This document shows, one piece after another, positions 4,268 to 61,190 of a DNA stretch of 64,000 nucleotides (positions are counted from its first letter, which is position 1; the number at the start of each line of letters is the position of its first letter). A program made the translations under genes and the position numbers. The DNA is taken from NCBI GenBank assembly GCA_035758845.1, contig DASTVZ010000224.1, positions 151-64,150 on the forward strand, written 5' to 3'. Under the pieces are notes generated by a model. The model did no database searches, had not been told where the DNA came from, and saw nothing but the letters and a program-made list of their open reading frames with translations. Source of the DNA: Vicinamibacterales bacterium. Its GTDB lineage: Bacteria; Acidobacteriota; Vicinamibacteria; Vicinamibacterales; 2-12-FULL-66-21.

Positions 4268-4273
4268 CCATTG

Positions 4274-14638: not shown

Positions 14639-15133
14639 CTACCCCGCTTTCTCGATGTGAATAAGGTAGGCCTCGACCATGATCAGATTGCGCTCCCCTG
14701 ACTGGCGAATGATGCTGAGGAGGTTGTCCATCTTGACCACTTCCTCCAGCTGCTCGTCGATGAACCACTGGAGGAAATTGCTGGCGAGGTAATCGGTCTC
14801 TTTGACCGCGAGATCCATCAGGCTGGTGATCTGGCGCGTGACTTCCTGCTCCCATTTCAGCGCCGCTTCAACCGCTGCTTCGGCCGACGCAAAGGTCGGC
14901 ACCGGCGCGGCAATCGAGGGGATGCGCAGATCCCCTTTGGTGTCGAGCACGTATTTCACGAACTTCATCGCGTGCTCTTTTTCCTCTTCGGCTTGATCGA
15001 AAAACAGCTTGGCTAGCAGCTTCAGCTGGCGCTGCTGGAAGTGTCCGGCGATGCTGAGATACTGCATGCTCGCGCCGAACTCGTGGCCGATCTGCTCGTT
15101 GAACGCTTTCGCGAGACTTGAACTAATCAACAA
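14639..15133 (-). CDS. ferritin
   Basis: LAKAFNEQIGHEFGASMQYLSIA and EEEKEHAMKF. TTG 15133 is preceded by GGAGGAGGAG. The alternative ATG start is at 15157. Confidence 0.85.
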   Translation of the reverse strand: MLISSSLAKAFNEQIGHEFGASMQYLSIAGHFQQRQLKLLAKLFFDQAEEEKEHAMKFVKYVLDTKGDLRIPSIAAPVPTFASAEAAVEAALKWEQEVTRQITSLMDLAVKETDYLASNFLQWFIDEQLEEVVKMDNLLSIIRQSGERNLIMVEAYLIHIEKAG

Positions 15134-35978: not shown

Positions 35979-36183
35979 CGATTGCCGATTGTTGATTGGT
36001 GAATGCCGATTTGTCGATTGCTGATTGTCAATTGGTCATTGACGATCGCTGACTGGCGATTGGTGATTGGCGATTGGTGATTGCCGACGGGTGTTCGAGT
36101 ATGACCAGGAGGTAAACACAATCGTCACTCCACAATCGTCAATCCAAACTCCGCAATCTACAATCCGCAATCCGCAATCGTCA
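35979..36183. repeat. large inverted heptad array: about 16 GATTGNN units, a 28-nt loop, then about 9.5 CAATCNN units
   Basis: Left arm 35979-36088, loop 36089-36116, right arm 36117-36183. It occupies the whole corA-mutL spacer and touches both the corA stop and the mutL ATG. Confidence 0.9.
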
Positions 36184-37146
36184 TATCCAGCCTTTCTTCC
36201 GAAAGAACCCGAGCATCGCCGCCGACAGGGCGAGCATGATGCCGCAGACCCACCAGAACTGCGCGTGTTCGCCGCCGGGCAAATGCGGCAACGGCACGTT
36301 CATGCCGTACATGCCGGTCAGGACGGTCAGCGGCATGAACAGCGTTGCGATGATCGTGAGCACCTTCATCACCTGATTGAGCTGGTTCGATACCGCAGAC
36401 AGGTGGGCGTCGAGGATACTCGTGATGCGATCCTGAAAAAACATCGCCTCGTCCGACAGCCTCACCAGGTGGTCATGCACATCGCGAAAACCGTACGCGA
36501 GCTGTTCGGTGATCAACGGGAATTCGCGGCGCGCCAGCCGGCCGACGACGTCGCGTTGCGGCAGCACGGTTTGGCGCAACGACGAAATGTCTTTCTTGAA
36601 ATTCAGAATCCGGCGTGCCAGCTGCGTGTTCGGGTGCTCGAACACTTCCTTTTCGAGTTTGTCGAGCTTCTCAGACAACTTGTCGACTTCGGGCCGGTAG
36701 TTGTCCACCATCGTGTCGACGATCCGGTAGAGCAACATGCCGGGCCCTTCGCCAAGCATGCGGGAGTCACGGCTGCACACCACGCCCACTTTGCCGATTG
36801 ACCGTGAGACACCGGGATGCACGGTCACCAGGAATTGTGAACCGAGAAAAAAATCGACGTCCTTGGTGGTGAAGCGATGTTCGGACGCATGAAAATCGAT
36901 TCCGTGCAGAATTACGTACAGGTAGTCGCCGTAGGACTCGATTTTCGGGTGATGCAGCTCGCTGAGAGCGTCTTCAATCGCAAGCTGATGAAAATGAAAG
37001 GTGTCGCTGAGGACTTTTGTTTCGTCAGGAGTCGGTCGATCGAGATCGACCCAGACACATATGCCGCTGCCAGGCTTGATCCAGGCGGGGTCCACGCGAT
37101 CGACGAGCTGAGTGGACCCGCCCTCGTGCTTGTAGATCCTGATCAA
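36181..37146 (-). CDS. corA: magnesium/cobalt transporter CorA
   Basis: YGMNV (GMN) motif plus two C-terminal TM helices. TTG 37146 overlaps the ppdK stop (TTGA). Confidence 0.85.
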
Positions 37147-39982: not shown

Positions 39983-42184
39983 CTACTCCGTTTGCGGAAT
40001 GATTTCCGAGATGTCCGCGAGATCGAGAATGAGGTCGCGCAGATCCGCCATGAGCGTCAGGCGCGCGTCTCTCGTCCGCACGTCGTCTGCCATCACGAAC
40101 ACCTCGGTAAAGAACCTGTCGACGGCCGCGCGAAGGCCGGCGATTTCAATGAATGCGGCGCGATAGTCGCTGCGCGCGGCGGCAGTTTCGATTCGCGGGC
40201 GACGCGCGTCCAGCTCCTCGAGCAGGGCACGTTCTGCCGCCTCGGTAATGGCCCTGCGATCGAGCGCACCGGACGATCGACGTTCGCGAGCGATATTCTT
40301 GACCCGCTTGAACAACACGGCCAGCGCCTGAAAATCCTCCGAGCCGCGCATGCCCTGGATCGCTTCGGCGATCCGCCTGGCGCGGAGCGGACTGACATCT
40401 CCAGCCGATGTTGCGGCACGCACGACCTCAATCCCGAACCCACGTTGTTCCAACGCAAACCGTACTCGCTCGGCCGCGAACGCGAGGGCGGCCTCGGACA
40501 GTTCCGGCGTCCATGGACCGGTCGTGCCGATCGTTCCTTCCGCGGCGCGCGCGAGAATCGGTCCAAGCCAGACTTCCCTGTCGATCCCGGTTAGCTGCGG
40601 AAGATCCATCAGGATCCTGACGGCCCCCTGCATCTGCCGCCGCAAGCCAAATGGATCGCGAGACCCGGTGGCACGTTCGCCCGCCTTCGCCAGCGAGACG
40701 AACGTGTCGATCTTGTCGGCAAGCGAAACAGCCGCCCACGTCGTCGCGGCCGACCCCAACTGCTCGCGTGACGGCGGCGCATCCGCTTCGACTCCCACGG
40801 GAAGGTACTGGTAATAGATAGCCTTCCACACCTGCTCGGGCTGCCCCTGCTGGCGCGCGTAGATCCCACCGATCGTACCCTGAAGTTCGGTGAACTCGAA
40901 AACCAACTCCGTCGTGAGGTCGGTTTTGGCGAGCCTCGCCGCCTCGGCGGCATGCTGGGCGTCTTGCGGGTTGCCCAGGACATCACGCGCGATCCATTGC
41001 GCAAGCGACGAAATTCGCTCGGCCTTGTCTCGATAGCTGCCGAGCTTCTTGTGAAACAGCAGCGTGTGCAGGCGATCCAGTCGCGACGCGAGCGGCGTCT
41101 TTTGATCGGATTCCCAGAAGAATTTCGCGTCCCTGAGCCGCCCGGTGACGACGCGCTCGGCATTTTTGGCGATCAGACGCTCATCAGATGGCTGCGTATT
41201 GACGACTGCAAGGAACGCTTCCTTCAACTCTCCAGTCGCCGTGACGACCGGGAAGAAGTGCTGATGGTGCACGAGCGTCGTCGTCAATACCTCGTGCGGA
41301 AGGGAAAGAAAGCCGCGGTCGTAAAAGCCGGCAACGACGCCCGGATATTCGACCAGGTCTGCCACCTCGTCGATGAGCGTGCTGTGCTCCTTCAGATGGA
41401 CCCGTCCACTCAGCCGCCGCGCGTGTGATTCGAGTTCGCGCGCAATGCGATCGCGGCGATCCTCATGCCTGAGCACGACGAAATGCTCGGACAGCCGCGC
41501 CTGGTACTCCTCGAAGCTTCGAACCTTGATCGATCGGCCGGCGCGGCCACTCGTGGCAAGAAACCTGTGGCCGTAGGTGAGCGCACCCGATTCAATGTCC
41601 AACACCTGCGGTCCGGCCGCATTCGCGGCACGGCTGATCGTGAAAGGGACCACGCGTCCGCCGTAAAGGAACAGCAGCCATCGAATCGGTCTTCCAAACA
41701 GCAGCTCACCGCGTCCATCGTCCAGCTTCGCGTCCCAGTGCATCTGCTTCGGGAACGCGAGATCGCGCAGCACCGCGCCGAAAATCTCCGGCAGCGCGTC
41801 GACGGCGCTCTTCCCGCGCTGACGCTTGTGATACGCGAGGTATTCGCCTTTCGGCGTCGACAGCCGCGAGAGTTCCTCGAACGCGACACCTTGTTTGCGG
41901 GCAAAGCCGAGCGCGGCGGGCGTGGGTTTGCCGTCGGCATCGACCGCGGCCGAGACCGGTGGGCCGCTCAATGTTTCTTCGAGATCCTCCTGGCGCTCCG
42001 CGATCTTCGCGATGCGTGCCGTCAGCCGTCGAGGCGTGCAATAGCTTTCGACCGCTGCCATCGGAGCAATACGGAATTCGGTGAGCCGATCCTTCAACCG
42101 ATCCGCGAGCTGCCGCGTCAACCCGGGCATCCACGCTGCCGGCAGTTCCTCGACGCCAATTTCGATCAGCAGTTCTCGATCCAT
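39983..42184 (-). CDS. glyS: glycine--tRNA ligase beta subunit
   Basis: [17 protein letters not shown]-terminus and overall GlyS pattern. Confidence 0.95.
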
Positions 42185-42264
42185 TCCAAATCAACAATCC
42201 ACAATCACAATCGCCCAATCGACATTCAAAAAAATCAGCAATCAGCAATCCGCAATCAACAATT

Positions 42265-42267
<3 letters not shown>
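42185..42267. repeat. single-orientation heptad array, AATCNNC units (about 11 copies) with a central A7 run
   Basis: tccaaatcaacaatccacaatcacaatcgcccaatcgacattcaaaaaaatcagcaatcagcaatccgcaatcaacaatttca fills the glyQ-glyS spacer. Confidence 0.85.
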
Positions 42268-43139
<872 letters not shown>

Positions 43140-47619: not shown

Positions 47620-50019
47620 CTAACGCGTCGGGATCGCTCCGAATGTGACCGAATACGTACTTCCGCCGCGGAGCGCCACACGCGCGCTGCCGTCCGGCGC
47701 GCCGCGAAATATCGTTCCACCCCCCGTCACGAAGACCACGACGAACCCCTTAGGGGGACGGATCACCTGCTCACCGTCCGTATCGGGTTTTAGGCGCACC
47801 AGCCGCGGCCGTCCCGCTTGCCACGTGATGTCCACGCTGACCGCGCCGCGGGCGCGGAGGCCGGTGACCGATCCGGATGGCCAGGCAGACGGCAACGCGG
47901 GAAGAATCGCAATCTCGCCGGCGTGCGACTGGAGGAGCATTTCGGCGATGCCGGCCGTGCCGCCGAAGTTGCCATCAATCTGAAATGGCGGATGGCTGTC
48001 GAGCATGTTCGGCTGCGTCGAGTGCGCGAGCAGCGCGACGAAGTTCTCGTGCGCGCGATCCCCTTCCTCGAGTCGAGCCCAGAAATTGACGATCCATGCA
48101 CGGCTCCATCCGGTGCCACCGCCGCCGGCGGTGAGGCGACGTTCGAGCGTGACGCGCGCCGCGCGCGCGAGATCCGGTGTGCCGCGAAGCGTGATCTGGT
48201 TGCCGGGGTGGAGCGCGAACAAATGCGAAATGTGGCGGTGACCGGGATCGCGCTCGTCATAGTCCTCCAGCCATTCTTGCAGTTGTCCGTACTTCCCAAT
48301 CTTCAACGGCGGAAGCGTCCGCCGCGCCGTGGCGAGTTGATTCCTGAAGTCTGCGTCAACCCCGAGGATCTCGCTCGCCTGCATTGCCCGGCCAAACAGC
48401 GCATACGCAATCTCGGTATCCATGTAAGGGCCCATGGTGAGCGACGCTGATGTGCCATCAGGGAGCTTGTACTGATTCTCGGGAGAGATTGACGGCCCGG
48501 TGACGAGCCTCCCCTGCTGATCGGTGACCATGTAGTCGAGCAGGAACTCGCTCGCTTCTTTCAGCACGGGATACGCGCGCGTGCGCAGGAACTCGCGATC
48601 GTGGGTGAAGTCGTAGTGATCCCAGAAGTGCAAGGCGAGCCAGGCACCCCCGGCCGGCCAGATACCGGATCGCACGCCATCAATCGGACCGGCGTGCCCC
48701 CACGCGTCCGTGTTGTGATGAATCACGAAACCGCGGGCGCCATACATCGTCTTGGCGACGTGACGGCCGTCCTCGCGCGACTTGTCGACCAGGTCAAAGA
48801 GCGGGGCGTGCAGTTCGGAAAGGCTGGTGACCTCGGCCGGCCAGTAATTCATCTCAGTGTTGATGTTGACCGTGTATTTGCTGTCCCACGATGGCGCGAG
48901 CGAGTCATTCCAGATGCCCTGCAGGTTCGCGGGCAGCGTCCCGGGCCGGCTGCTTGAAATAAGCAGATATCTGCCGAAAACGAAGTAAAGGGCTTCGAGT
49001 GCCAGATCGGTGGCGCCCCCCCTCACGCGAGCGAGCCGTTCGTCGGTCGGCAATTCTGGTGCCGGCGCATCGAGACTCAGCCGCGTCCGTTTCGCGAAAC
49101 GCTGATAATCCGCGATGTGCGCGGGCCGCATTTCCTCGTAATAGTCTCGGCCGCTCGCCGCGTTCAGCGCTGCGCGCGCGGCCTGGGCCGGATCGCGCTC
49201 CTTCATCGTCGTCGCGGCCGCAATCAGCACCGTCGCCTTGTTCGCCCCCGTCACGGTCACCGATGCCCCGTCCACCCGTAGGTGCCCCGCCTCGGTCAGG
49301 ACACGTGCGATGCCGGCGAAGCGTACCCCCGCCTTCGGCTCGTCGGCGTGCCGCGCCGACGCGGGCAGCGCCTGGCCTTCGAGCACAATCGAGTTGTTTC
49401 CCTCGACGCGCGAGGTCGCGTCACGTTCGCGCGACATCGAAGCGGTGAACGAAATGGCGTTCGGTCGATCGGAGGTGAGCCGCACCGCGATGACTTGATC
49501 GACAGCCGTCGCCAACATTTCGCGTCGAAACGTCGTTGCACCGACGCGGAATCGGACACGTGCCACGGCTTCGTCGAGATCCAGTTCGCGCTGGTAGTCG
49601 GACGCTTCCCCGTCGAGCCGAAAACGGAGTCGCAAATCGCCGAGCGTCTCGTACGGCGGCATACGCCGCGGAACCGAGATGATCGTCTTGTCAGCAATGG
49701 CTTCCGCTTCCGCAGGCTTGCCCGCAAAAAGTAATCGCCGGATCTCGGGAAGCGATCCGGCCGCCTTCGGGTTGACGCGATCGAGCTTCTGGCCGGCCCA
49801 CACGGTCTCTTCATTCAACTGCAGTTGCTCGTCGGCAACGCCGCCAAACACCATCGCGCCGAGCCGACCATTTCCGATCGGCAAGGCTTCGTTCCAATTG
49901 GTTGCCGGAGCGCGGTACCACAGCACGTTGCGCGACGGTACCGGTACCTGCCCGAGCGTCGACGCACGAAAGCCGAAGGACAGTCCGATCACCAGCAACG
50001 CGGCCAGCGTCTTTTTCAT
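47620..50019 (-). CDS. glycoside hydrolase family 95 (alpha-L-fucosidase-like)
   Basis: Start ATG 50019 (MKKTLAALLVIGLSF). LWYRAPATNWNEALPIGNGRLGAMVFGG and QLNEETVWAG. Confidence 0.85.
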   Translation of the reverse strand: MKKTLAALLVIGLSFGFRASTLGQVPVPSRNVLWYRAPATNWNEALPIGNGRLGAMVFGGVADEQLQLNEETVWAGQKLDRVNPKAAGSLPEIRRLLFAGKPAEAEAIADKTIISVPRRMPPYETLGDLRLRFRLDGEASDYQRELDLDEAVARVRFRVGATTFRREMLATAVDQVIAVRLTSDRPNAISFTASMSRERDATSRVEGNNSIVLEGQALPASARHADEPKAGVRFAGIARVLTEAGHLRVDGASVTVTGANKATVLIAAATTMKERDPAQAARAALNAASGRDYYEEMRPAHIADYQRFAKRTRLSLDAPAPELPTDERLARVRGGATDLALEALYFVFGRYLLISSSRPGTLPANLQGIWNDSLAPSWDSKYTVNINTEMNYWPAEVTSLSELHAPLFDLVDKSREDGRHVAKTMYGARGFVIHHNTDAWGHAGPIDGVRSGIWPAGGAWLALHFWDHYDFTHDREFLRTRAYPVLKEASEFLLDYMVTDQQGRLVTGPSISPENQYKLPDGTSASLTMGPYMDTEIAYALFGRAMQASEILGVDADFRNQLATARRTLPPLKIGKYGQLQEWLEDYDERDPGHRHISHLFALHPGNQITLRGTPDLARAARVTLERRLTAGGGGTGWSRAWIVNFWARLEEGDRAHENFVALLAHSTQPNMLDSHPPFQIDGNFGGTAGIAEMLLQSHAGEIAILPALPSAWPSGSVTGLRARGAVSVDITWQAGRPRLVRLKPDTDGEQVIRPPKGFVVVFVTGGGTIFRGAPDGSARVALRGGSTYSVTFGAIPTR

Positions 50020-50023
50020 GAGC

Positions 50024-50965
50024 TCACCGTTTTCGGCGATCGTTTCGTGCCTTGGCACTCTTAGCACTCCTGGCACTCGGAGTCGGCACCCCAATTTCGT
50101 CGAGTACGCGGTCGTTGTCACGCCAGTTGGAATTGACCTTGACACGCAGATCGAGAAACACCTTCGTGTCAAAGAACGCTTCAAGATCACGGCGCGCCTC
50201 GGTTCCAATCTGCTTGATCATGTCACCGCCGCGCCCGATGACGATTCTCTTTTGTGATTCAGTTTCAACGAAGATCGTGCAGTACAACCGCAGCAGGCGA
50301 TCGCGCTCTTCCTCGTCGAACTCGTCGACCACGACCGCGGTTGAAAACGGAAGCTCTTCGCGCGTGTGCTGAAGCACTTTCTCGCGAACGGTTTCCGCCA
50401 CCAACACGCGTTCCGGTTGATCCGTCAGGTAGTCATCAGGATAGCCGGGCTCCCCTTCCGGCAACTGATCGAGAAGCACGCGCTCGAGGCGATCGACGCC
50501 GTCGCCGGTCGTCGCCGAAACCGGAACGATGGCGGCAAAGTCATGCCACTGCCGGGCCTGGTCGATCAGTGGAAGCAGACGCGCTTTCGCCACCCGATCG
50601 ATCTTGTTGAGGACGAGCACGGCGGGTGTTCGAAGGTCTTTCAGCAATGCGGACACGTATTCGTCCCCATGACCCGGCCTCGTCGAGGCGTCGAACACGA
50701 GCGCGATCACGTCAACCTCGCGCAGAGTGTCCACCGCCGAATCCACCATCCTGACATTCAAGCGGTGGAGCGGCCGATGAATCCCTGGGGTATCGACGAA
50801 GGCAATCTGCCCCTCGGGATAGTTCTTCACGCCGAGGATACGCGTTCGCGTGGTTTGAGGCTTGTCGGAAACGATCGCAATCTTCTCGCCGATGATCCGG
50901 TTGAGGAGGGTGGACTTTCCGGCGTTGGGACGGCCGACGAGCGATGCGTATCCCGCTTTCGGCAT
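50024..50965 (-). CDS. era: GTPase Era
   Basis: GRPNAGKSTLLN G1 motif, DTPG and NKID, plus a KH domain. Basic C-terminal tail. Confidence 0.95.
   Translation of the reverse strand: MPKAGYASLVGRPNAGKSTLLNRIIGEKIAIVSDKPQTTRTRILGVKNYPEGQIAFVDTPGIHRPLHRLNVRMVDSAVDTLREVDVIALVFDASTRPGHGDEYVSALLKDLRTPAVLVLNKIDRVAKARLLPLIDQARQWHDFAAIVPVSATTGDGVDRLERVLLDQLPEGEPGYPDDYLTDQPERVLVAETVREKVLQHTREELPFSTAVVVDEFDEEERDRLLRLYCTIFVETESQKRIVIGRGGDMIKQIGTEARRDLEAFFDTKVFLDLRVKVNSNWRDNDRVLDEIGVPTPSARSAKSAKARNDRRKR
50046..50089. repeat. 9-nt GGCACTCNN units (3-4 copies) encoding the Era C-terminal tail
   Basis: gtgccttggcactcttagcactcctggcactcggagtcggcacc. In frame it encodes SAR-SAK-SAK-AR. Confidence 0.6.
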
Positions 50966-50978
50966 GGAAGAGGCGTTC

Positions 50979-52247
50979 CTAGACTTCCGGTTGCGGTTGC
51001 GGCGCTAGTCGCATGCGCACCTTGTGGATGCGGCGCCGCTCGGCTTCAAGCACTTCGATCTGCAGACCGTCGCTTTCGAACGTCTCCCCGACCGCCGGTA
51101 CGCGACCGGCTCGGGTCAGCACGTACCCGCCGACTGTCTCGAACCCTTCCGGTTCGATTTCGATGCCGAGTCGATCCCGCACTTCGGCGATATTGACTTT
51201 CGCGCTGAACACGTACGATCCGCTTGCTTCCTCGATGACCGGCTCGGTCTCGACGTCGTATTCGTCGCGAATCTCGCCAACGATCTCCTCCAGCAGATCC
51301 TCGATGGTCACCAGCCCGGCGGTGCCGCCGTATTCGTCGACGACAATGGCGATCTGAACCTGCTGACGCTGGAACTCTTTCAGCATTTCGGCGACGCGCT
51401 TCGTCTCGGGAACGAACGTTGCCGGCCGGATGAATCGCGTGAGATGCAGAAGCGACGTCTGTCCCGACTCCGGTGGATCGAGCCGGAGCAAGTCTTTGAT
51501 GAAGACGAACCCGACGATGTTGTCAAGATTCTCGGTGTAGATGGGGATACGCGAGTACTCCTGCTCGCGAAAGAGCGCGCGGAGCTCGTCGAAGGTGGCC
51601 TCCGCCTGAATCGCCACCATGTCCGGGCGCGGGGTCATGACCTCGCGCACCAGTGTGTCGCCGAAATCCACGATCGATTGCAGCAGACGACGTTCGTCCA
51701 CTTCGATGATGCCCTGTCTCTCAGCCGTCTCGTTCGGCGGCGCCTCTCCTGGCTGATTCTCGACCGGTTCGCCGTCGCCGTTGCTCGGCTCGGCGCGTTC
51801 ACGCTCACGCCGCGGGACCGCGGCTATGAGCCGCACGAGGCCACCGGTCAACGGGTGAAGAAACCTGGCGACGACGTCGAACGGCGGCAACAGCACTTCA
51901 AGCACTCGCTCGGGGTTTCGCCGCACGATTAACAGCGGCAGAACGTGCTCGAACACGAGAATGAAGATCGCAACGAACACGAGCAGCATCCCAATCGACT
52001 GGAACCCCGTGCGTCCCGTCAGGATCGCGATGAACATCGTCGCCAGCGAGAAGATCAGGCCGAGCAGAAGTCGCGCAGGAATGAAGAGCTGCGTGGGATC
52101 CTCGAGATAGAAGCCGAGACGGTCGTCCCGTCCTCCGCGTTCGGCCATCAGCCGCAGTGAGAGGCGCATCAACGCGGTGAACGCTGTTTCAATCGTGCCG
52201 ACGTACACCGCGGCAATCGCGAGCAGAAAGAGCAGCAGCGGAATCAT
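50979..52247 (-). CDS. hemolysin-family / CorC-like protein (DUF21-CBS-CorC_HlyC)
   Basis: N-terminal TM domain, a CBS pair and a C-terminal CorC/HlyC domain. Conserved position next to ybeY. Confidence 0.9.
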   Translation of the reverse strand: MIPLLLFLLAIAAVYVGTIETAFTALMRLSLRLMAERGGRDDRLGFYLEDPTQLFIPARLLLGLIFSLATMFIAILTGRTGFQSIGMLLVFVAIFILVFEHVLPLLIVRRNPERVLEVLLPPFDVVARFLHPLTGGLVRLIAAVPRRERERAEPSNGDGEPVENQPGEAPPNETAERQGIIEVDERRLLQSIVDFGDTLVREVMTPRPDMVAIQAEATFDELRALFREQEYSRIPIYTENLDNIVGFVFIKDLLRLDPPESGQTSLLHLTRFIRPATFVPETKRVAEMLKEFQRQQVQIAIVVDEYGGTAGLVTIEDLLEEIVGEIRDEYDVETEPVIEEASGSYVFSAKVNIAEVRDRLGIEIEPEGFETVGGYVLTRAGRVPAVGETFESDGLQIEVLEAERRRIHKVRMRLAPQPQPEV

Positions 52248-52771
52248 GATCGCTCGATCAATCCCGCACGAAGGCCGCCGCGGCGGCGGAGTCGTGTTTC
52301 GACGCGGCGCATGCGCCCGGCGTCCTCCTGATTGTGGTGATCGTACCCGAGCAGGTGCAGCAAGCCATGAAGCGCAAGCACGCGCAACTCGGCCTGGTAC
52401 GAGTGGCCGGCGTCCCTCGCCTGCTTCCTGGCAGTGCCGGTGGCAATGACGATATCGCCAAGGAAACCTGTCGGGATCCGTTGTCCGGGATCCGGGATCC
52501 GGGATCCGGGATCAACCGGAAACGATAAGACGTCGGTCGGCCGATTTTTCCGGCGGTACTGTGAATTGAGTGTCTGGCTGTGGGCATCGGTGACGAGCGC
52601 GATCGCTACCTCGCCGCGTGCGACAGATGGCGCGATCGAGGCGAGCCACTGCGAGAGCCCGCCGTCGCGGACCGATCGTCCGCGACCGTCAGTCACGCTG
52701 ACATGCAAGCGTCGACCGCGCCGGTTCTCGGCGCCACCCGGCTGGCGCCGGACTTTACTGTCGGGATCCAC
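52244..52771 (-). CDS. ybeY: rRNA maturation endoribonuclease YbeY
   Basis: [11 protein letters not shown] zinc motif and DVLSFP. GTG 52771 is the first start after the phoH region and overlaps phoH by 17 nt. Confidence 0.85.
52471..52512. repeat. CCGGGAT heptads inside the ybeY CDS: 4 perfect tandem copies (52485-52512) plus 2 degenerate units
   Basis: tcgggatccgttgtccgggatccgggatccgggatccgggat. Contains four GGATCC cores. 42 nt equals 14 codons. Confidence 0.9.
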
Positions 52772-53708
52772 CGTAGGCTTCGTACGCCTTGACGATCTGC
52801 TGCACGAGCGGGTGCCGCACCACGTCCTTTTCATCGAAATGAATGAACGCGATGCCCTCGACGTTGCCAACCACCTTCATGGCCTCGACGAGGCCCGACT
52901 GGCGTGCCGTCGGCAGATCGATCTGCGTGACGTCTCCAGTGATGACGGCTTTTGACCCGAACCCGAGGCGCGTCAGAAACATCTTCATCTGTTCCGAGGT
53001 GGTATTCTGCGCTTCGTCCAGAATCACGAACGCATCGTTCAGCGTGCGCCCGCGCATGAACGCGATCGGCGCCACTTCGATCGTTCCACGCTCCAGCAGC
53101 CGATCCGCGCGCTCGATTTCCATCATGTCGTACAACGCATCGTAGAGCGGACGCAGGTACGGATTCACTTTCTCCTGCAAATCGCCTGGCAGGAAGCCGA
53201 GCTTCTCGCCCGCTTCAACCGCCGGACGCGCCAGGATGATCCGGCTCACGCGCTTCGACAAGAGAAAGGAGACGGCCTGCGCCATCGCCAGGTATGTCTT
53301 CCCGGTGCCGGCCGGCCCGATGCCGAATACGATGTCCCGCTGCTCGATGGCCTCGAGGTAGCGTCGCTGATTGACGCTCTTGGCCATGACCTGCCGTTTA
53401 CCGGTCGCGCGGGGCGCACCGCGGAGGAAGTAGTCCGCAAGCTCGACGCGTTCGTCCTGCTCGACGAGCTGCGCGGCCGTCTTCACGTCGCCCTTGGCGA
53501 GCCGGTACCCCCCTCGGATCAACGACGACAGCTGTTCCAGCAGGTTTTCCGTTCGCGCGACGTCGGACGCCTCACCCTCGACGATCACTTCGTGGCCGTT
53601 CGTACGAATCTTCACATTGAACAGCGACTCAAGATGTTTGAGGTTCTCGTCGTAGGGGCCGTACAGGGACTCGGCCCCGTCATCAGGGACCGAAATTTTG
53701 CGCATCAC
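52755..53708 (-). CDS. phoH: PhoH family ATPase
   Basis: [13 protein letters not shown] Walker A and ILDEAQNTT. Confidence 0.95.
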
Positions 53709-53783
53709 CGTGGCAGGAGGGATGGGGTTCTCCTTCGAAACACGCAGTCAGTAACCAGGATCGTATCACGGGTGCCGGATGAG

Positions 53784-53815
53784 TTGGCTCGCGGCTCTGC
53801 CCAGCAGCCAGCAGC
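53784..53815. repeat. GGCTNNN / CCAGCAG heptad inverted pair
   Basis: ttggctcgcggctctgcccagcagccagcagc ends 4 nt before the aspS stop codon. Confidence 0.5.
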
Positions 53816-53819
53816 TTAC

Positions 53820-55589
53820 TCACTTTAGCCTCAGTTCTTTCAACTGCTTGTCACTGACGGGCGAAGGCGCTCCGGCCATCAGATCCACTGCCTGAGCGGT
53901 TTTTGGAAACGCGATCACATCGCGGATTGATGGCTCGCCACACAGGATCGCCACAATCCGGTCGAGGCCGAGCGCAATTCCGCCGTGCGGCGGCGTGCCG
54001 TACTCGAGCGCATCAAGAAAGAATCCAAAGCGAAGCTTCGCTTCCTCTTCCGAGATCCCGAGCAGTCTGAAAATGAGACGCTGCAGCGTCCGATCGTGGA
54101 TTCTGATACTGCCCCCGCCGATCTCGCTGCCGTTCAGCACGAGGTCATAGGCGCGTGCGCGCGCGCGTCCCTGATCCGTGTCGAGCAGCTGCCGGTCGCT
54201 CTCGAGCGGCGCCGTGAACGGATGGTGCATGAACTCGTAGCGCTTCTCGTCTTCGAGCCACTCGAACATCGGAAAGTCGACCACCCACAGGAATGCGAAT
54301 GCGTCCGGGTCGAGCAGACCTTCCTTCTTTGCCATCTGCAGTCGAAGCTGCCCAAGCATCCTCGACGTGGCTTCGTGTGGACCCGCCGCGATCAGCAGCA
54401 GATCGCCAGCGGCGGCGCCAGCAAGATCCAGCGCCTGGCGAATCGCATCTTCACCGGCGGCTTTCAACGCAGAGCTTTGCACTCCTGCGTCCGCACGCCG
54501 CGCCCACACGAGGCCGCTGGCACCGAGCTGCTTCGCCTGGTCGACCACCTCATCGAGCTCGCGACGGGAATATTTCCCCGCGGCCGGCATCGCAAAGCCA
54601 CGAACCTCGCCTCCGCTCGACATCGCACTGCGAGCAATGGCGAACTCGGAGGTCGCGAATGCGGCCGACAGATTCTTGATTTCCATCGCGCATCGAAGGT
54701 CCGGCTTATCCGACCCGTACTTCGCAATTGCCTCGGCATACGGCAAACGCAAGAAAGGTCGCGGCGCTCCTTTTCCAATCAGCGCCATCAGGTGCTCCAT
54801 CAACGGTTCGAGCGTGGCGAAGACGAGTTCTTCGGTCGCGAACGAGATCTCGAGATCGACTTGGGTGAACTCCGGCTGCCGATCGGCGCGGAGGTCCTCG
54901 TCGCGGAAACACTTGACGATCTGAAAATACCGATCGAGCCCGGAAATCATCAGGATTTGCTTGAAGATCTGCGGCGATTGCGGCAGGGCGTAGAACTCAC
55001 CGGGATGCACGCGGCTCGGCACCAGGTAGTCGCGCGCCCCCTCGGGCGTCGACTTGGTGAGCATTGGCGTCTCGATCTCGAGAAAGCCGAGTTCATCGAA
55101 ATATTTTCGGATCGCCATCGTCGCGCGGTGGCGCATGATCAGGTTGCGCTGCATCCGCGGCCGCCGCAGATCGATGTACCGGGATTTCAGCCGTGCCTCT
55201 TCCGTGATCTCGACGTCGTCGCTCACCATGAACGGCGGCGTTTTCGCTTCGTTGAGCAAGCGGATTTCGCTGGCTGCGACCTCGATCTGACCGGTCGCAA
55301 TCTTGGTGTTCACCGTCTCCGGGGCACGATCCTCGACCGTCCCCGTCACGGCGATCACAGACTCCGCGCGCAGGCGCTTCGCATCAGCCACCAGCGTGTC
55401 GTTGTCGCGGACGATCACCTGCGTGACCCCGTAGCGATCCCGGATGTCGATGAACACGAGCGATCCCAGGTCTCTGACGCGGTGGACCCAGCCAAGCAGG
55501 ACGACATCTGTGCCGACATCCTCGACGCGAAGGGCACCGCACGTGTGTGTTCTCGCCAACTTCCCTAACGGTTCAATTTGCATGGCCAA
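53820..55589 (-). CDS. aspS: aspartate--tRNA ligase
   Basis: GWVHRVRDLGSLVFIDIRD OB fold, FRDEDLRADRQPEFTQ motif 2 and GGIALGLDR motif 3. Confidence 0.95.
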   Translation of the reverse strand: MAMQIEPLGKLARTHTCGALRVEDVGTDVVLLGWVHRVRDLGSLVFIDIRDRYGVTQVIVRDNDTLVADAKRLRAESVIAVTGTVEDRAPETVNTKIATGQIEVAASEIRLLNEAKTPPFMVSDDVEITEEARLKSRYIDLRRPRMQRNLIMRHRATMAIRKYFDELGFLEIETPMLTKSTPEGARDYLVPSRVHPGEFYALPQSPQIFKQILMISGLDRYFQIVKCFRDEDLRADRQPEFTQVDLEISFATEELVFATLEPLMEHLMALIGKGAPRPFLRLPYAEAIAKYGSDKPDLRCAMEIKNLSAAFATSEFAIARSAMSSGGEVRGFAMPAAGKYSRRELDEVVDQAKQLGASGLVWARRADAGVQSSALKAAGEDAIRQALDLAGAAAGDLLLIAAGPHEATSRMLGQLRLQMAKKEGLLDPDAFAFLWVVDFPMFEWLEDEKRYEFMHHPFTAPLESDRQLLDTDQGRARARAYDLVLNGSEIGGGSIRIHDRTLQRLIFRLLGISEEEAKLRFGFFLDALEYGTPPHGGIALGLDRIVAILCGEPSIRDVIAFPKTAQAVDLMAGAPSPVSDKQLKELRLK

Positions 55590-55763
55590 GACAGTCTCTA
55601 CCTTAGAAGCGCTCTCGCATCGTGGTCAACATCAACCGCTTCACTGTCAAACTGCATTCATGTCTTAAGAGAACGACAGGAGAAAGGAGAAAAGAAAAAA
55701 GACTCTTGTGATCCGATCGCAGTGTGACCGTGGAGTGCGCTGATTGAACCGTCACGCTCAACA

Positions 55764-57065
55764 TTACTGTGATGCCTTCACCAGGTCAGCGACTGCTGCC
55801 CTCGGGACCGATTGCTGAACACCGGTTTCAAGATTCTTGATCGTCACTTCTCCGCGGCCGATTTCGTCGCCGCCGAGTATCGCCGCGAAGCGAATCTTTC
55901 TGGTCGCCGCGTACTTCATCTGCTTCCCTAGCTTGTCGGCCTCGGGATACATCTCGACGCGAATCCCGCTGGCCCGCAATTCCGCGGCCAGCTTCAACGC
56001 CTCAGGAATCGTCGACTGGTCGAACAGCGTCAGCAAAACATCGGCCGACGCCTGCTCCACCTGCAGCGGAAACATCTTGCGCTCGGTCATGACAACCAGG
56101 ATGCGTTCGAGCCCGAGCGAGAATCCGCATGCCGGCACATCTTCGCCGAGAAACATGCCGATCAATCCGTCGTACCGCCCTCCGCCACCGAGGCTGCCGG
56201 CCAGGTCCGGGACGGTGACTTCCATGATGGCGCCGGTGTAATACGAAAGTCCGCGGGCAAGAAATGGTGCCGGCTTCACATGAGGCGCGGCGGCAGTCCC
56301 CTGGCAAAGGTCGATGATCTCGCGCAGGTTTTGCACAGCAGCGGACCCCTGTTCATCCGAAAACGAACCGAACTCGCCCGAGTGTGCGTTATCGAGCACG
56401 GCCTTCGCCGCGTCGGGCGGGACGTGTCGCGAAACCATCTCCTTGAGCACGCCATCGACGCCAATCTTGTCCAGCTTGTCGAGCGCGACAAGTGCCGCGG
56501 TGTGGAGCGCGGGTTCAACCCCCGCCCGGTTCAGTGTGGCGGTGAGCAACTGGCGGTGGTTCAACTGGATCGCGAAGTCATCGAACCCAAGACGCGTGAG
56601 CACATCGCTGACCGCCGCAAGCATCTCGGTCTCGACCACGGGCGACCGGGATCCAATCGCATCGACGTCGCATTGAAAAAACTCGCGGAACCGTCCCCGG
56701 GCCGGACGATCCGCGCGCCACACTGGCTGAATCTGATATCGCTTGAAAAACTTCGGCAACTGGCCGCGGTACTCGGCCACGACGCGAGCCAAGGGCACGG
56801 TGAGGTCGTAGCGCAACGCCAGATCGGTTTCACCCGACGATTCATGCTCGCCGCGGCGCAGCACCTTGAAGATCAGCTTGTTGCCCTCTTCGCCGTACTT
56901 CCCCATCAACGTGTCGATGTTCTCGAGCGATGGAGTTTCGAGCGGCTCGAATCCGTAGCGCTGGTAGACGTCGGATACGATTCCGATGACGTAGGCGCGA
57001 CGGCGGACGTCTTCAGGCAGGAAATCGCGCATGCCGCGCGCCGGGCGGGTCTGCTGCGATGGCAT
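55764..57065 (-). CDS. hisS: histidine--tRNA ligase
   Basis: GMRDFLPED, FRYERPQ-like WRADRPARGRFREFFQCD, and GGGRYDGL. Confidence 0.95.
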   Translation of the reverse strand: MPSQQTRPARGMRDFLPEDVRRRAYVIGIVSDVYQRYGFEPLETPSLENIDTLMGKYGEEGNKLIFKVLRRGEHESSGETDLALRYDLTVPLARVVAEYRGQLPKFFKRYQIQPVWRADRPARGRFREFFQCDVDAIGSRSPVVETEMLAAVSDVLTRLGFDDFAIQLNHRQLLTATLNRAGVEPALHTAALVALDKLDKIGVDGVLKEMVSRHVPPDAAKAVLDNAHSGEFGSFSDEQGSAAVQNLREIIDLCQGTAAAPHVKPAPFLARGLSYYTGAIMEVTVPDLAGSLGGGGRYDGLIGMFLGEDVPACGFSLGLERILVVMTERKMFPLQVEQASADVLLTLFDQSTIPEALKLAAELRASGIRVEMYPEADKLGKQMKYAATRKIRFAAILGGDEIGRGEVTIKNLETGVQQSVPRAAVADLVKASQ

Positions 57066-57595
57066 CAGCGCACGGATCCCGCGCCGGCGGCATTCATATA
57101 ATCGAGTCGATATCCGACATAACGCTCGGCGTAGGTGCGAATGCTCGCAACGTCCTCGTCGGTCAACTCGCGCCGCACCTTCCCCGGCGACCCCATCACC
57201 AGCGACCGCGGCGGCACACGAGTCCCCTCCGCCAGCAACGCCCCGGCCGCGACGATGGAGTCCGCTCCAACGACAACGCCGTTCAAAAGAATCGCGCCCA
57301 TCCCGACCAGGATCCGATCCTGCAGCGTGCAGCCGTGCACGATTGCCCCGTGTCCAATCGTCACATCGTCGCCAATTGTGGTGGGATGCGTTCCGATCAT
57401 GACGTGCACGATCGTGCCGTCCTGGACGTTCGAGCGCGCGCCGATGCGAATCCAGTTCACGTCGCCGCGCACGACGGCATTCATCCAGATGCTGCTGGCC
57501 TCACCAATCTCGACATCACCGATCACTTGTGCGCTGCTGTCGACGTACGCCGTCGCGTGCACCCTCGGGGTGATGCCTTTGTAGGGGCGAAGCAT
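57065..57595 (-). CDS. gamma carbonic anhydrase family / hexapeptide-repeat protein
   Basis: Left-handed beta-helix hexapeptide repeats with a YrdA/PaaY-like layout. Confidence 0.85.
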   Translation of the reverse strand: MLRPYKGITPRVHATAYVDSSAQVIGDVEIGEASSIWMNAVVRGDVNWIRIGARSNVQDGTIVHVMIGTHPTTIGDDVTIGHGAIVHGCTLQDRILVGMGAILLNGVVVGADSIVAAGALLAEGTRVPPRSLVMGSPGKVRRELTDEDVASIRTYAERYVGYRLDYMNAAGAGSVR

Positions 57596-57610
57596 CTAAC
57601 AATGATACTT

Positions 57611-57660
57611 CGCGATTCGCGCGTTAGCGATTCGCGCGTTAGCGATTCGCGCGAATCGCG
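57611..57660. repeat. 15-nt unit cgattcgcgcgttag x2 running into an 18-bp perfect palindrome gcgattcgcgcgaatcgc
   Basis: Units at 57613-57627 and 57628-57642. Palindrome at 57642-57659. Confidence 0.85.
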
Positions 57661-57709
57661 TATCGGGATCCGGTGTGCGGGATCCGTAGTCCGGATCCCG
57701 GATCCCGAC
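57661..57709. repeat. GGATCC-core heptad array in inverted arrangement (cgggatccg ... cggatcccg)
   Basis: tatcgggatccggtgtgcgggatccgtagtccggatcccggatcccgac. Four GGATCC cores in 40 nt. Same family as the ybeY insert. Confidence 0.8.
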
Positions 57710-57736
57710 AAGCGACAGCCTCCGACCGCATCCCGA

Positions 57737-59386
57737 TCACTTCTTCACAGTCGGATACGCAATCCCCAACTGCTCGAGGTATGTCTTGTACTTCGCGGGA
57801 TCGTAGTAGAACTTTTTCATCTGCTCGCGATACTTATCCATCGTCGGCTTGTTCAGTTCGATGGCTGGACGGTCGTCCGGGCGGATAAGCGGTTCGTATT
57901 TCGTATCCTTCGTCTGCACGTTGCGGAAGTAGTCCCAGGCAGCCTGCACGACGGCTGGTTTCATCAGCAGGTCGATCATCGTCATCGCCTGCACTTTCGC
58001 ACCAGCAGTCACACCCTTGTGCGCGATCGGTGTCGCCATCGCGATGGCGTTCGCCCAGTTGTGCCCGGGCAGCCCTGGGATGTTGGCCGGATATCGCAGC
58101 GTAATCGTCGGGACATTCCACGAGACATCGCCGATGTCATCCGACCCTCCGCCGGTGTTTGTGGTTGCAGGGCCCTGAAGCGCAGCCGCGAGCTTGATCG
58201 TCAAGCCCGTTTCTCGCGATCCGAGTTCTTTCTGGAGCGCCTTCGCCAGCGTCTGATCGTCTTCAGTCCACTGCGGCAGTCCGACGCGCGTAATGTTCGC
58301 GAATGCCGCTTCCGCCACGGCCTTGTTGAAGTGCTGGGGCCAGGCCGACCCGAGCACGCGCGTGGGTAGAAGCTCGGTGCCGGTCATCAGCGCGGCGCCC
58401 TTGGCGATCGAATCGCCAATGGCCCACATCTCCTTGATCTTCTGATACGTCGTCTGCCGGAAGTAGTACCACACCGATGCCGTTCGCGGGACGACGTTGG
58501 GTTGATCGCCGCCGTCGGTGATCACGTAATGCGAACGCTGCTCGAGCGGCAAATGCTCGCGGCGGAAGTTCCAGCCGATGTCCATCAGCTCTACGGCATC
58601 CAACGCGCTGCGGCCGCGCCAGGGCGCTCCGGCGGCGTGCGCGGTCTCTCCGCGGAATGTGTAGAGCACTGAGACGAGACCTGTGCCCGATCCTCTATCT
58701 CCCCACGAGACGCCCATCTCGTCACCGACGTGGGTGAAGAGCGCGACGTCGACGTCCTTGAACAGCCCGGCGCGTACGAAGTACGCCTTGGTGCCGACGA
58801 GCTCCTCAGCGGTGCCGGACCAGATGCGCAGCGTTCCGGGAAGCTTTTCGCGCTCCATGATCTTCTTCACGGCCAGGGCCGCAGTGACGTTCAGTGGCTC
58901 GCCGGAGTTGTGTCCTTCACCGTGGCCAGGCGCACCTTCGATGATCGGATCGTGGTACGCGACGCCTGGCTTCTGCGACGCCTGCGGAATCCCGTCGATA
59001 TCAGAACCCAGAGCCAGAACCGGCTTGCCGGATCCCCAGGTCGCCATGAATGCCGTGGGAATGCCGGCCACGCCTTCCTCGACCGTGAAACCGTTCTTCT
59101 TGAGAATGTCGATCAGATAGCGGTTCGTCTCGAACTCCTGGAAGCCGAGTTCGCCAAAGCTGAAGACGGAATCGACCATCTGCTGCGTGAACACTTTCAT
59201 CGAGTCGATGTCCGCCACCGCTTCGCTCTTGAGCTTGGCGACGCGGGGTTCGTCAGCTGGCGGCGCCGGTGGACCCTGTGGCGCTGGCGACTGCGGCTGA
59301 TCGCCACGTCCCTGCGCCAGAACGGACGCGCCGGCGAGAGCGAAGATGACCGCAATCAATCTCACATATCTAGTCGTACCGCTCAC
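57737..59386 (-). CDS. secreted M20-family amidohydrolase (AbgB-like)
   Basis: GSDIDGIPQ ... GHGEGHNSG metal ligands. Start set to GTG 59386, preceded by AAGGAG at 5-nt spacing, giving MSGTTRYVRLIAVIFALAGASVLA. Confidence 0.8.
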   Translation of the reverse strand: MSGTTRYVRLIAVIFALAGASVLAQGRGDQPQSPAPQGPPAPPADEPRVAKLKSEAVADIDSMKVFTQQMVDSVFSFGELGFQEFETNRYLIDILKKNGFTVEEGVAGIPTAFMATWGSGKPVLALGSDIDGIPQASQKPGVAYHDPIIEGAPGHGEGHNSGEPLNVTAALAVKKIMEREKLPGTLRIWSGTAEELVGTKAYFVRAGLFKDVDVALFTHVGDEMGVSWGDRGSGTGLVSVLYTFRGETAHAAGAPWRGRSALDAVELMDIGWNFRREHLPLEQRSHYVITDGGDQPNVVPRTASVWYYFRQTTYQKIKEMWAIGDSIAKGAALMTGTELLPTRVLGSAWPQHFNKAVAEAAFANITRVGLPQWTEDDQTLAKALQKELGSRETGLTIKLAAALQGPATTNTGGGSDDIGDVSWNVPTITLRYPANIPGLPGHNWANAIAMATPIAHKGVTAGAKVQAMTMIDLLMKPAVVQAAWDYFRNVQTKDTKYEPLIRPDDRPAIELNKPTMDKYREQMKKFYYDPAKYKTYLEQLGIAYPTVKK

Positions 59387-59450: not shown

Positions 59451-60473
59451 ATGCCGCTTCTCGATCGTTTTAGCCGTCCGTTGCGGAGCCTCCGCATTTC
59501 GGTGACCGATCGCTGTAACCTGCGATGTCAGTACTGCATGCCGGAGCCGGACTATCTCTGGCTGCCCCGCGAAAGCCTGCTGACATTCGAAGAAACTGCC
59601 GCGATCGTTGACGCGTTCACGCCGCTTGGCGTCGATCGGGTGCGGATCACTGGCGGCGAACCGCTTCTCCGCCGCGATCTGCCGGTGCTTATCGAGTCAT
59701 TGGCGGCGAAGCCGGCAATCGCTGATCTTGCGATGACCACCAACGGGGTTCTGCTCGCGGCGAATGCATCGCGACTGCGCACCGCCGGACTGCACCGAGT
59801 GACCGTCAGTCTTGACACGCTCGACCGCGAGCGCTTCCGCGCGCTGACGCGGATGGATGATTTGCACGAGGTGCTCGACGGCATCGCTGCTGCCGCGGCC
59901 GCGGGATTTACGTCGCTCAAGCTCGACACCGTGGTGATCCGCGGCGTCAATGACGATGAACTGGTGGCGCTCGTCGAATATGCGAAGAGTGTGAATTCCG
60001 AACTCCGATTCATCGAGTACATGGATGTTGGCGGGGCAACGCGCTGGACACCTTCTGCGGTTGTGTCGAGGCGCGAGATCCTCGATCGATTGCGCGCACA
60101 CTACGGGGGTGTCATGCCGATTGCGGAACAGTCGTCAGCCCCCGCGGATCGATTCCTGCTGCCTGACGGGACGACGTTCGGAATCATTTCGTCGACGACC
60201 GAGCCGTTCTGTGCATCGTGCGATCGTAGCCGCCTCACCGCGGACGGTGTCTGGCTTCTTTGCCTCTATGCAGCCACCGGCACGGACCTTCGTCGCCCGC
60301 TACGCGCAGGGGCTAGCCGCGAGGATCTTCAGCGGTTGATCGAAGCTGTATGGTCGGTTCGTGCCGACCGCGGTGCCGAAGAGCGTCTCGGGATGGATCG
60401 CGAAACGACGCTTATCCCCGTCCGGACGCTTAAGAAAGACGCTCACCTCGAAATGCATACCCGCGGCGGCTGA
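59451..60473 (+). CDS. moaA: GTP 3',8-cyclase MoaA (radical SAM)
   Basis: Start ATG 59451 (MPLLDRFSRP). CNLRCQYC radical-SAM cluster and C-terminal CASCDRSRLTADG. Confidence 0.9.
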   Translation: MPLLDRFSRPLRSLRISVTDRCNLRCQYCMPEPDYLWLPRESLLTFEETAAIVDAFTPLGVDRVRITGGEPLLRRDLPVLIESLAAKPAIADLAMTTNGVLLAANASRLRTAGLHRVTVSLDTLDRERFRALTRMDDLHEVLDGIAAAAAAGFTSLKLDTVVIRGVNDDELVALVEYAKSVNSELRFIEYMDVGGATRWTPSAVVSRREILDRLRAHYGGVMPIAEQSSAPADRFLLPDGTTFGIISSTTEPFCASCDRSRLTADGVWLLCLYAATGTDLRRPLRAGASREDLQRLIEAVWSVRADRGAEERLGMDRETTLIPVRTLKKDAHLEMHTRGG

Positions 60474-60609
60474 TTGCGGATTGCGGAGTGGCGATTGCCG
60501 ATTTCTTGATTGGCGATTGCGGATTGAGATTGCCCATCTCAATCGACAATCTCAATCGACAATCGACAATCTGAAAATCCGCAATCTACAGTCCGAAATC
60601 GGCAATCAG
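60471..60609. repeat. inverted heptad array: about 8.5 GATTGCN units, a 5-nt loop, then about 10.5 CAATCNN units
   Basis: The array starts with the moaA TGA (tgattgcggattgcgg...). Its centre is a perfect 9-bp stem, gattgagat-tgccc-atctcaatc (60522-60544). It ends 2 nt before the sigma ORF. Confidence 0.9.
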
Positions 60610-60611
60610 CG

Positions 60612-61190
60612 GTGTCACAAACCCCCGCCCTGGAACGTTGTATAAGAGTGAGCGCATCAGGGCTGGTGGCGACGTATCCTTCGACCTACACGGCTCCAGA
60701 GGCGGTTGAGGCTCTCACCCCGACAGTCTCATCGCTGTTCGACCTGCACGCGAGTGGTTTGTATCGGCTGGCGCTTGCCATGCTGCACGATCCCGATGCG
60801 GCGCAGGATGTCGTTCAAGACACCTTCGCGCGTCTGATCGAACATCTTCGTCAGGGTGGACCGCTCACGAATGCCCGTGGATGGCTGTACACCGTCGCTG
60901 CACATGCCTGTCGGGATCGGCAACGAGGAAGAGGTCGGTGGTTGCCGTGGCTGATGGAGCGCGACACGCGCACCGCGGCTGAGACTCCCGATCGCTTCGA
61001 CGACAAGCAAGCCATGTTGCACGCCATTCGGGCGCTTTCGGCGCGCGACCGGATGCTCATCGCTCTTCGCGCGCAGGGGTTGTCCTATCACGAGATAGGC
61101 GACGCATCAGGCATCCGGTACACATCGGTCGGCCGGCTTTTGACGCGCGCGCTCAACCGTCTCGAGAAAGAGTTGCATCGCCGGAGCTGA
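60612..61190 (+). CDS. ECF-type RNA polymerase sigma factor
   Basis: Region 2 AQDVVQDTFARL ... WLYTVAAHACRD. Region 4 LSYHEIGDASGIRYTSVGRLLTRA. The start may be GTG 60648 or 60666 rather than 60612. Confidence 0.8.
   Translation: MSQTPALERCIRVSASGLVATYPSTYTAPEAVEALTPTVSSLFDLHASGLYRLALAMLHDPDAAQDVVQDTFARLIEHLRQGGPLTNARGWLYTVAAHACRDRQRGRGRWLPWLMERDTRTAAETPDRFDDKQAMLHAIRALSARDRMLIALRAQGLSYHEIGDASGIRYTSVGRLLTRALNRLEKELHRRS

Follow-up and report, generated by a model that had tools for sequence, protein, structure and literature searches.

The stretch of DNA analysed here, 64,000 nucleotides (nt) of contig DASTVZ010000224.1 from a Vicinamibacterales bacterium of the Acidobacteriota (hereafter, the window), carries a tandem array of a 7-nt unit within ybeY, a gene that lies on the minus strand in the order phoH-ybeY-corC/CNNM-era according to Pfam (Table 1). 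On the + strand, positions 52472–52513 read CGGGATC CGTTGTC (CGGGATC)x4, a block of 42 nt for which Tandem Repeats Finder (TRF) gave a period of 7, 6.0 copies and a score of 63. In the CGGGATC register the block comprises five perfect units and one degenerate unit; in the CCGGGAT register it comprises four perfect units, as described in an earlier, model-made reading of the letters alone (the sequence-only reading), and the four GGATCC cores reported there are also present (at 52474, 52488, 52495 and 52502). With up to three mismatches allowed, the 28-mer (CGGGATC)x4 has the ybeY site as its sole match in the window and matches 0 of 100 dinucleotide-preserving shuffles; head-to-tail copies are thus present beyond chance. 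The block corresponds exactly to codons D66–P79 of YbeY (counted from the TTG at 52708) and is flanked by LSFP and LGDI, the two segments between which it had first been noticed. The heptad block in ybeY is therefore confirmed as real.

Genes were mapped by applying Pfam to candidate open reading frames (ORFs); a map of GC content at third codon positions (GC3) discriminates too weakly at 62% GC. The minus-strand ORF 52244–52870 matches the YbeY profile PF02130 (E 4.6e-33, 114.3 bits against a cut-off of 25), and the zinc-binding motif H-x3-H-x5-H occupies residues 114–124 and is invariant in homologue alignment A1. The AlphaFold2 model has a mean predicted local distance difference test score (pLDDT) of 80, and its top Foldseek matches are 1oz9, 1xm5 and 7y7o (probability 1.00, TM-score 0.71–0.79); a sequence search of the PDB also matches YbeY. 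By profile, zinc motif and predicted fold alike, the protein is a YbeY RNase (PF02130/UPF0054). The nearest public protein, P0001, comes from a Vicinamibacterales metagenome-assembled genome (99% identity) and was called as a 175-aa form from an alternative GTG start, which is found at 52771 in the window.

Table 1 Features of the window discussed in the text (strand is that of the feature; a dot means that no strand applies)
Feature	Position	Strand	Basis or remark
ybeY coding sequence, 154 aa from TTG 52708	52244..52708	-	Pfam, Foldseek, PDB sequence matches, P0001
Heptanucleotide array, (GATCCCG)x4 GACAACG GATCCCG on sense strand	52472..52513	-	Codes D66–P79; sequence, TRF, shuffles
Perfect four-unit tract, 28 nt	52486..52513	-	Exact match
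YbeY β3–β4 loop coding region, V65–F82, 18 aa	52463..52516	-	Alignment A1, AlphaFold2
phoH-like gene, upstream of ybeY	52755..53708	-	Pfam PF02562, E 2.8e-98
corC/CNNM-CBS-CorC_HlyC gene, downstream of ybeY	50979..52247	-	Pfam
era GTPase gene, last of cluster	50024..50965	-	Pfam MMR_HSR1 + KH_2
Intergenic CGGGATC array: two forward units with spacers and two reverse GATCCCG units, hairpin	57664..57709	.	Just downstream of M20 peptidase gene

The array lies in a loop of variable length

In the AlphaFold2 model the repeat falls into the loop between antiparallel strands 60–64 and 82–89, with pLDDT below 50 at residues 67–70 and 72–80. In the YbeY crystal structure of Staphylococcus aureus (7y7o), the long β3–β4 loop is disordered, and the active-site cleft is placed among helices α2, α3 and α5 (PMC9895993). 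The S. aureus loop resembles that of the window in its position in the fold, its length (~19 aa) and its disorder (PMC9895993), but its sequence is acidic and non-repetitive (LEEDEPEIDFSGLDIPR), and no tandem repeat codes for it. The sequence-only reading had held the equivalent loop in characterized YbeY proteins to be shorter; this is correct for E. coli and Aquifex, whose loops lack ~7–8 residues, but not for S. aureus, whose loop is about as long as that of the window. Judged from these sequences, the length of the window loop is not exceptional for the YbeY family. Its disorder, together with the length differences among YbeY proteins, marks the β3–β4 loop as a naturally variable and permissive site, in line with the permissive loop proposed before; among the relatives described below it tolerates from 0 to more than 50 residues.

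Copy number varies in frame-preserving steps

Loop lengths, counted from the residue after LSF (usually Pro), were compared across the 119 proteins with a recognizable loop out of the 120 top homologues (identity of at least 65%). They range from 7 to 61 aa, and the loops, in which P (21%), R (13%) and S (12%) are prominent, are built mainly of 7-aa units such as DNGSRIP. Two series with 7-aa spacing stand out: 47 of the 119 proteins fall on 12/19/26/33/40/47/61 and a further 32 on 17/24/31/38, where an even spread would predict ~17 per residue class. The commonest form in the clade is an 18-aa, two-repeat loop of six units. Loops of the GATCCCG type are confined to the close Vicinamibacterales clade, so the insert is lineage-specific; many relatives have 3–6 aa at this place, and distant ones most often 6 aa.

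The array behaves as a variable-number tandem repeat in sister lineages, in that copy number differs among close relatives there, rather than among strains of the window's own species. P0003 and P0005 are 100% identical over ~134 residues outside the loop and carry six and four copies of AQRIPDP, respectively (14 aa apart); P0056 and P0063, and likewise P0062 and P0088, are identical outside the loop and lie 7 and 9 aa apart inside it. At the DNA level, loci L081, L082 and L163, which come from three samples, have flanks identical at 389–390 of 390 positions and contain two, four and six copies of GCACAACGGATCCCGGATCCC, a 21-nt super-unit in which a degenerate heptamer accompanies two perfect ones. 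L168 and L169 contain four and two copies of GGATCCCGGATCCCGGACAAC, and the degenerate heptamer GACAACG is common to these two loci and the window. Both the series of two, four and six super-units at near-identical flanks and the 7-aa spacing of the protein lengths bear out the expectation, raised with the sequence-only reading, of length changes in 21-nt steps. The window array itself appears, from the comparison of related loci, to represent the common six-unit (2 × 7 aa) state in a fairly stable form. Its layout is unchanged in L161 and L162, two loci from different samples that have identical loops, although their flanks are only 80% identical to those of the window; the core differs at only 3 of 42 positions. 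The sub-lineage of the window is therefore not visibly unstable.

A different kind of insertion is found at the same place in some relatives. L081 (1325–1420), L082 (469–606), L083 (1693–1788) and L163 (1009–1191) carry a ~45-nt palindrome in the YbeY loop, consisting of GCCCTTCGACAAGCTCAGGGC followed by GCCCCGAGCCTGCCGAGGGGC and translated as ALRQAQGAPSLPRG. When paired manually, its arms fit each other most closely on the antisense strand, on which the A-C mismatches turn into G-U pairs. The palindrome, which the window lacks, resembles an in-frame insertion of an element of the repetitive extragenic palindrome (REP) or miniature inverted-repeat transposable element (MITE) kind.

The reading frame was followed with tblastn, in which the N- and C-terminal halves of YbeY were queried against 160 loci, half of them GTDB species representatives and half metagenome contigs (80 each). 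In all 159 loci that hold both halves, these are in the same frame; loop length runs from 0 to 162 nt, is divisible by 3 throughout and is most often 18 nt, and no frameshifted ybeY allele was seen among them. L131 stops at the contig end, and its loop is short and non-repetitive. When slips were simulated in the window, the loss of one unit gave a 147-aa product that has a nonsense tail, lacks the HGxLHLxGYDH motif and ends at 52258–52260, whereas the gain of one unit gave a 578-aa read-through into the corC frame, which is open upstream to 52511 and thus into the repeat (stop-to-stop ORF 50979–52511). Gain or loss of three units left the frame intact, in agreement with the earlier statement that the six-unit block is in frame and that the frame is kept in three-unit steps. 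The accompanying suggestion that a single slip would knock out ybeY and, through polarity, affect the genes downstream has no support in the data: such slips would break ybeY on paper, but all 159 loci are in frame and the layout of L161 is unchanged.

Two long contigs of relatives show split gene calls near the repeat. In L170 (5565–6876) hisS is broken into several gene calls, and in L171 (8048–9939 and 12747–15037) the same is true of aspS, phoH and a GH95 gene; these splits are probably frameshift errors of long-read assemblies. The ybeY repeat is in frame in both loci despite the split neighbouring genes.

Heptamer arrays recur at the loop and in spacers

Arrays were surveyed with TRF in 173 related loci (766 kb) at a threshold of at least 3.5 copies, and hisS, aspS, phoH, ybeY, corC, era and two more genes were mapped by tblastn. 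Period 7 is the commonest class, accounting for 54 of the 110 arrays in 682 kb and for 83 of the 149 in the full 766 kb. Of these 83 arrays, 31 lie in ybeY, one weak array lies in aspS, two touch gene ends and 49 are outside the mapped genes; none was found inside phoH, corC, era or hisS at this threshold in the 766 kb. Vicinamibacterales genomes are thus rich in heptanucleotide tandem arrays, mostly intergenic, a pattern that the window follows, and, within the conserved hisS-aspS-phoH-ybeY-corC-era region, the YbeY loop is the single coding position at which such arrays are retained.

Lowering the threshold to at least three copies yields 34 YbeY-loop arrays made of 13 different units, including GATCCCG, GAATCCC, GAACCTC, CGAGTCC, CGCGCCT, CCGGTCC, CGCCCCT, CTAGCCC and AGTCCCC. 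Such diversity at a single loop speaks against the import of one element and for arrays that have been born and turned over repeatedly at the site. Flanking heptamer arrays are about threefold denser where the loop holds an array, at 1.9 per 10 kb compared with 0.5–0.7 in the other loci (p 0.03–0.07, from counts that are not phylogenetically independent), which fits a genome-wide mutational tendency.

The sequence-only reading had pictured an intergenic-type repeat that invaded the loop, and had pointed to an intergenic array of the same unit further along the window. That unit is indeed intergenic at 57664–57709 and also in L020, where a perfect (CGGGATC)x4 occupies the phoH-ybeY spacer (2926–2953) in the orientation opposite to that of the window loop array. 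The form of the window's intergenic copy differs, however, in being an inverted pair that forms a hairpin (57655–57720, −41.5 kcal/mol, z −5.78), and, given 13 units at the loop, birth in place fits better than invasion.

Substitutions and strand bias within the loop

Thirty unique 21-nt units were compared with the consensus GATCCCGGATCCCGGATCCCG. They differ from it by 25 synonymous and 70 non-synonymous changes, that is, 26% synonymous compared with 30% expected for random single changes, so purifying selection on the peptide is absent overall; a first impression of selection from many synonymous changes was overturned by this count. At the Arg codon of the unit, 10 changes are synonymous and 2 non-synonymous. 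On the sense strand, C exceeds G in 31 of the 34 loop arrays, compared with a ratio of 28:31 outside ybeY. Stop codons are not a sufficient explanation of this bias, because neither orientation of CGGGATC yields a stop; what seems to be favoured is either Pro/Arg/Ser-rich peptides or an mRNA that is not G-rich.

Repeats of the DPGSRIP type were also sought in other proteins, with six copies as the query against a set of 5.8 billion proteins. This returned only ORFs of 51–74 aa without Pfam domains, which are probably unrelated, as the Lys-rich flanks in most of the eight that were read suggest AT-rich DNA.

Interpretation and alternative explanations

The block is probably an in-frame, hypervariable, heptamer-derived repeat in a permissive and disordered loop of YbeY, and not a phase-variation switch. 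Replication slippage or unequal recombination would create the arrays and alter their copy number, and, because ybeY must stay functional, only changes by multiples of three units (21 nt, 7 aa) would survive. What varies in several lineages is a 21-nt super-unit (two perfect heptamers plus a degenerate one), and the outcome would be a Pro/Arg/Ser/Gly-rich loop of very variable length. Similarity among loop peptides may be maintained mainly by repeat turnover at the DNA level and not by selection on the peptide. The arrays that persist do pass through some filter, given that almost all of them are C-rich on the sense strand. Several observations weigh against this account. Slippage is inferred and not observed, and the locus counts lack phylogenetic independence. 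The pronounced C bias of the sense strand implies that the loop is not entirely free of selection, and the excess of synonymous changes at the Arg codon points the same way. Heptamers gather in the YbeY loop and not in other variable regions such as the corC linker or the era tail. Finally, that the six-unit layout is the same in L161, with 20% divergence in the flanks and 3 of 42 differences in the core, could reflect homogenization or some constraint.

Some of these features can also be read as signs of function. A Pro/Arg-rich repeat might be selected as a flexible extension that binds RNA or protein (for example, rRNA, Era or S11), with copy number tuning its length; the C-rich sense strand (Pro/Ser/Arg), the mainly synonymous changes at the Arg codon, the predominance of the 18-aa two-repeat form in the clade and the P-, R- and S-rich composition would all suit such an arm. 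We nevertheless consider it unlikely, as the overall synonymous fraction is no higher than expected without selection, otherwise identical proteins lie 5–14 aa apart in the loop, many relatives manage with only 3–6 aa, and the units, and hence the peptides, are wholly different between lineages. A related idea, which we judge improbable, is that the loop is itself a targeted or selected site of heptamer formation, either through a lineage-specific process that makes 7-nt arrays here as it does in spacers, or because copy-number changes, rare out-of-frame YbeY–CorC fusions included, vary the capacity for ribosome maturation within populations. A reversible switch proper, in which gain or loss of a single 7-nt unit silences ybeY, perturbs corC and era and creates subpopulations with altered ribosome maturation, has in its favour a unit that is not a multiple of three, set within a coding sequence in four to five perfect copies, the drastic products of simulated one-unit slips (147 aa without the zinc motif, or the 578-aa corC read-through) and the ATGA overlap of the ybeY stop with the corC start. 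It is very unlikely all the same: 0 of the 159 related loci are out of frame, L161 keeps the window layout at 20% flank divergence, the variation seen comes in 21- or 42-nt steps, and the gene encodes a housekeeping RNase and not a surface or restriction–modification function. Four to five units is, moreover, probably short for useful switching rates, judged by the repeats of Haemophilus and Neisseria. The ybeY tract does share with phase-variable contingency loci of Haemophilus, Neisseria and Campylobacter a unit that is not a multiple of three within an ORF (PMC12721329), but departs from them in its lack of OFF alleles in 159 loci, its short tract, its housekeeping host gene and its frame-preserving 21-nt steps.

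The DNA itself could also be the functional element, with (GGGATCC)x4 forming a template-strand G-quadruplex or a C-rich i-motif that modulates transcription of ybeY-corC-era, in parallel to a proposal made for Xanthomonas and Nostoc GGGNATC repeats. The + strand at 52487–52510 does read G3-N4-G3-N4-G3-N4-G3, with the four G3 tracts of a canonical motif; it is one of two such motifs in the 64-kb window and the sole one with its G-rich strand on +, and GGGAATC repeats prefer four units and form quadruplexes in vitro (Rehm et al. 2015, PMC4692102). However, two motifs are what a first-order Markov model yields by chance (mean 0.93), and ViennaRNA with the quadruplex option (RNA parameters) returns as its best structure a hairpin of the GGAUCC palindromes at −25.8 kcal/mol without any quadruplex. 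G or C triplets are missing from most other loop units, six units, and not four, are the state seen most often in the clade, and the mRNA strand of the tract folds no better than its shuffles (−29.8 kcal/mol, z −0.98). A role as a DNA structure thus seems extremely doubtful, and a G-quadruplex is disfavoured: its motif occurs but is not over-represented in the window, and the predicted fold is a hairpin. At z −0.98 the ybeY tract shows neither a special RNA structure nor the stable hairpin of a REP- or MITE-type palindrome; of the CGGGATC arrays, only the intergenic one (57655–57720) folds specially. No Rfam family matched within 50000–58000 at E up to 1, and no promoter was found in 52100–52900, where four terminator-like matches are not at the repeat. 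There is, lastly, a practically negligible chance that the array is an error of assembly or consensus. Repeats are prone to mis-assembly and the source is a metagenome-assembled genome; against this, the tract of 42 nt is below typical short-read length, homologous arrays recur in many independent assemblies (ENA, JGI, Logan and NCBI), L161 and L162 share identical loops although they come from different samples, and the frame is intact within a conserved flanking protein.

Relation to known heptamer and coding repeats

Heptamer repeats are reported to be over-represented in some large, GC-rich bacterial genomes and have been little studied (PMC4692102). Known cases are the GGGNATC repeats of Xanthomonas and Nostoc (Rehm et al. 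2015, PMC4692102), the short tandemly repeated repetitive (STRR) heptamers of heterocystous cyanobacteria and the TAACTGA repeats of Beggiatoaceae (PMC4679880). The arrays of Vicinamibacterales resemble these known heptamer repeats in their 7-nt unit, their number across the genome and their variable copy number, as well as in lying mostly between co-directional genes and in being sometimes tandemly inverted; the window unit GGGATCC is also similar to GGGAATC. By contrast, the units of Vicinamibacterales are very diverse, G tracts are missing from most intergenic units of the window (ATTGCTG and GATTGCC among them), and the preference of GGGNATC repeats for four units is not seen. Moreover, GGGNATC repeats are intergenic and near ORF ends, whereas the ybeY tract sits in the middle of the coding sequence, at codons 66–79 of 154; the published heptamer repeats reportedly occur less often than expected within coding regions, whereas in Vicinamibacterales one coding loop is recurrent. 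A search of the literature turned up nothing relevant on heptamers in Acidobacteria or Vicinamibacter, nor on repeats in YbeY.

Within coding sequences, the amino-acid tandem repeats of Borgs provide a parallel: they create disordered regions, and their units in ORFs are divisible by three (Schoelmerich et al. 2023, PMC9879509). Like the ybeY loop, they show fast nucleotide-repeat evolution and independent origins, never break the frame inside ORFs, form disordered Pro/Ser-rich segments and occur at the same place in homologues (PMC9879509). The YbeY loop has their combination of disorder and fast evolution, with pLDDT below 50 and variation in otherwise identical backgrounds. It differs in its base unit of 7 nt, of which only the 21-nt super-unit is divisible by three so that the frame is kept by copy number, and in its host protein, a cytoplasmic core RNase instead of an extracellular or membrane protein. 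The ybeY case hence combines features of heptamer repeats, Borg coding repeats and contingency loci.

With 13 units at one place in a single-copy housekeeping gene across an order of soil bacteria, the ybeY loop offers a natural reporter for the heptamer-repeat tendency of the lineage. Birth, turnover and copy-number dynamics of heptamers, as well as the strength of the frame filter and of a strand or peptide filter, can be measured there from metagenomes or single-locus amplicons. The locus also illustrates that a core gene can keep a repeat of non-triplet unit length that does not operate as a switch, which calls for caution in the automated prediction of phase-variable genes.

Other repeats in the window

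Further copies of the unit, and of its constituent motifs, are scattered through the window. GATC occurs 680 times, about threefold the ~220 occurrences predicted by base composition, and GGATCC occurs 37 times against ~21 expected and is thus not avoided. The last codons of phoH include one copy of GGATCCCG (52762–52770), and a single GGGATCC lies at the phoH stop together with the alternative GTG start of ybeY (52762–52771); the 'VDPDS' N-terminus called in many homologues arises from this overlap of the phoH stop with the ybeY GTG. The C-terminal tail of Era is encoded in part by a 9-nt repeat, CTTGGCACT (50051–50078, 3.1 copies, coding SAKSAK), whose unit, unlike the ybeY heptamer, is divisible by three.

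The tandem repeats of the window are mainly of period 7 (4190–4266, 14513–14634, 35979–36189, 42185–42263 and 60472–60607). Outside ybeY these arrays are intergenic or at gene edges and have site-specific units such as ATTGCTG, GATTGCC, CAATCGA and TCCGCAA. Inverted pairs of heptamers form long imperfect hairpins at 60465–60612 (−79.1 kcal/mol, z −9.2) and 4180–4275 (z −4.6); 42175–42270 has no special fold. The hairpin at 14505–14640 (z −5.6) is made by a repeat of period 10, GAACCTCGCA, and not by the neighbouring heptamer array. A perfect 15-nt repeat with a modest fold, GCGATTCGCGCGTTA (57612–57653, 2.8 copies, z −2.2), directly adjoins the CGGGATC hairpin in the spacer that separates the M20 peptidase gene from a hexapeptide-repeat gene.

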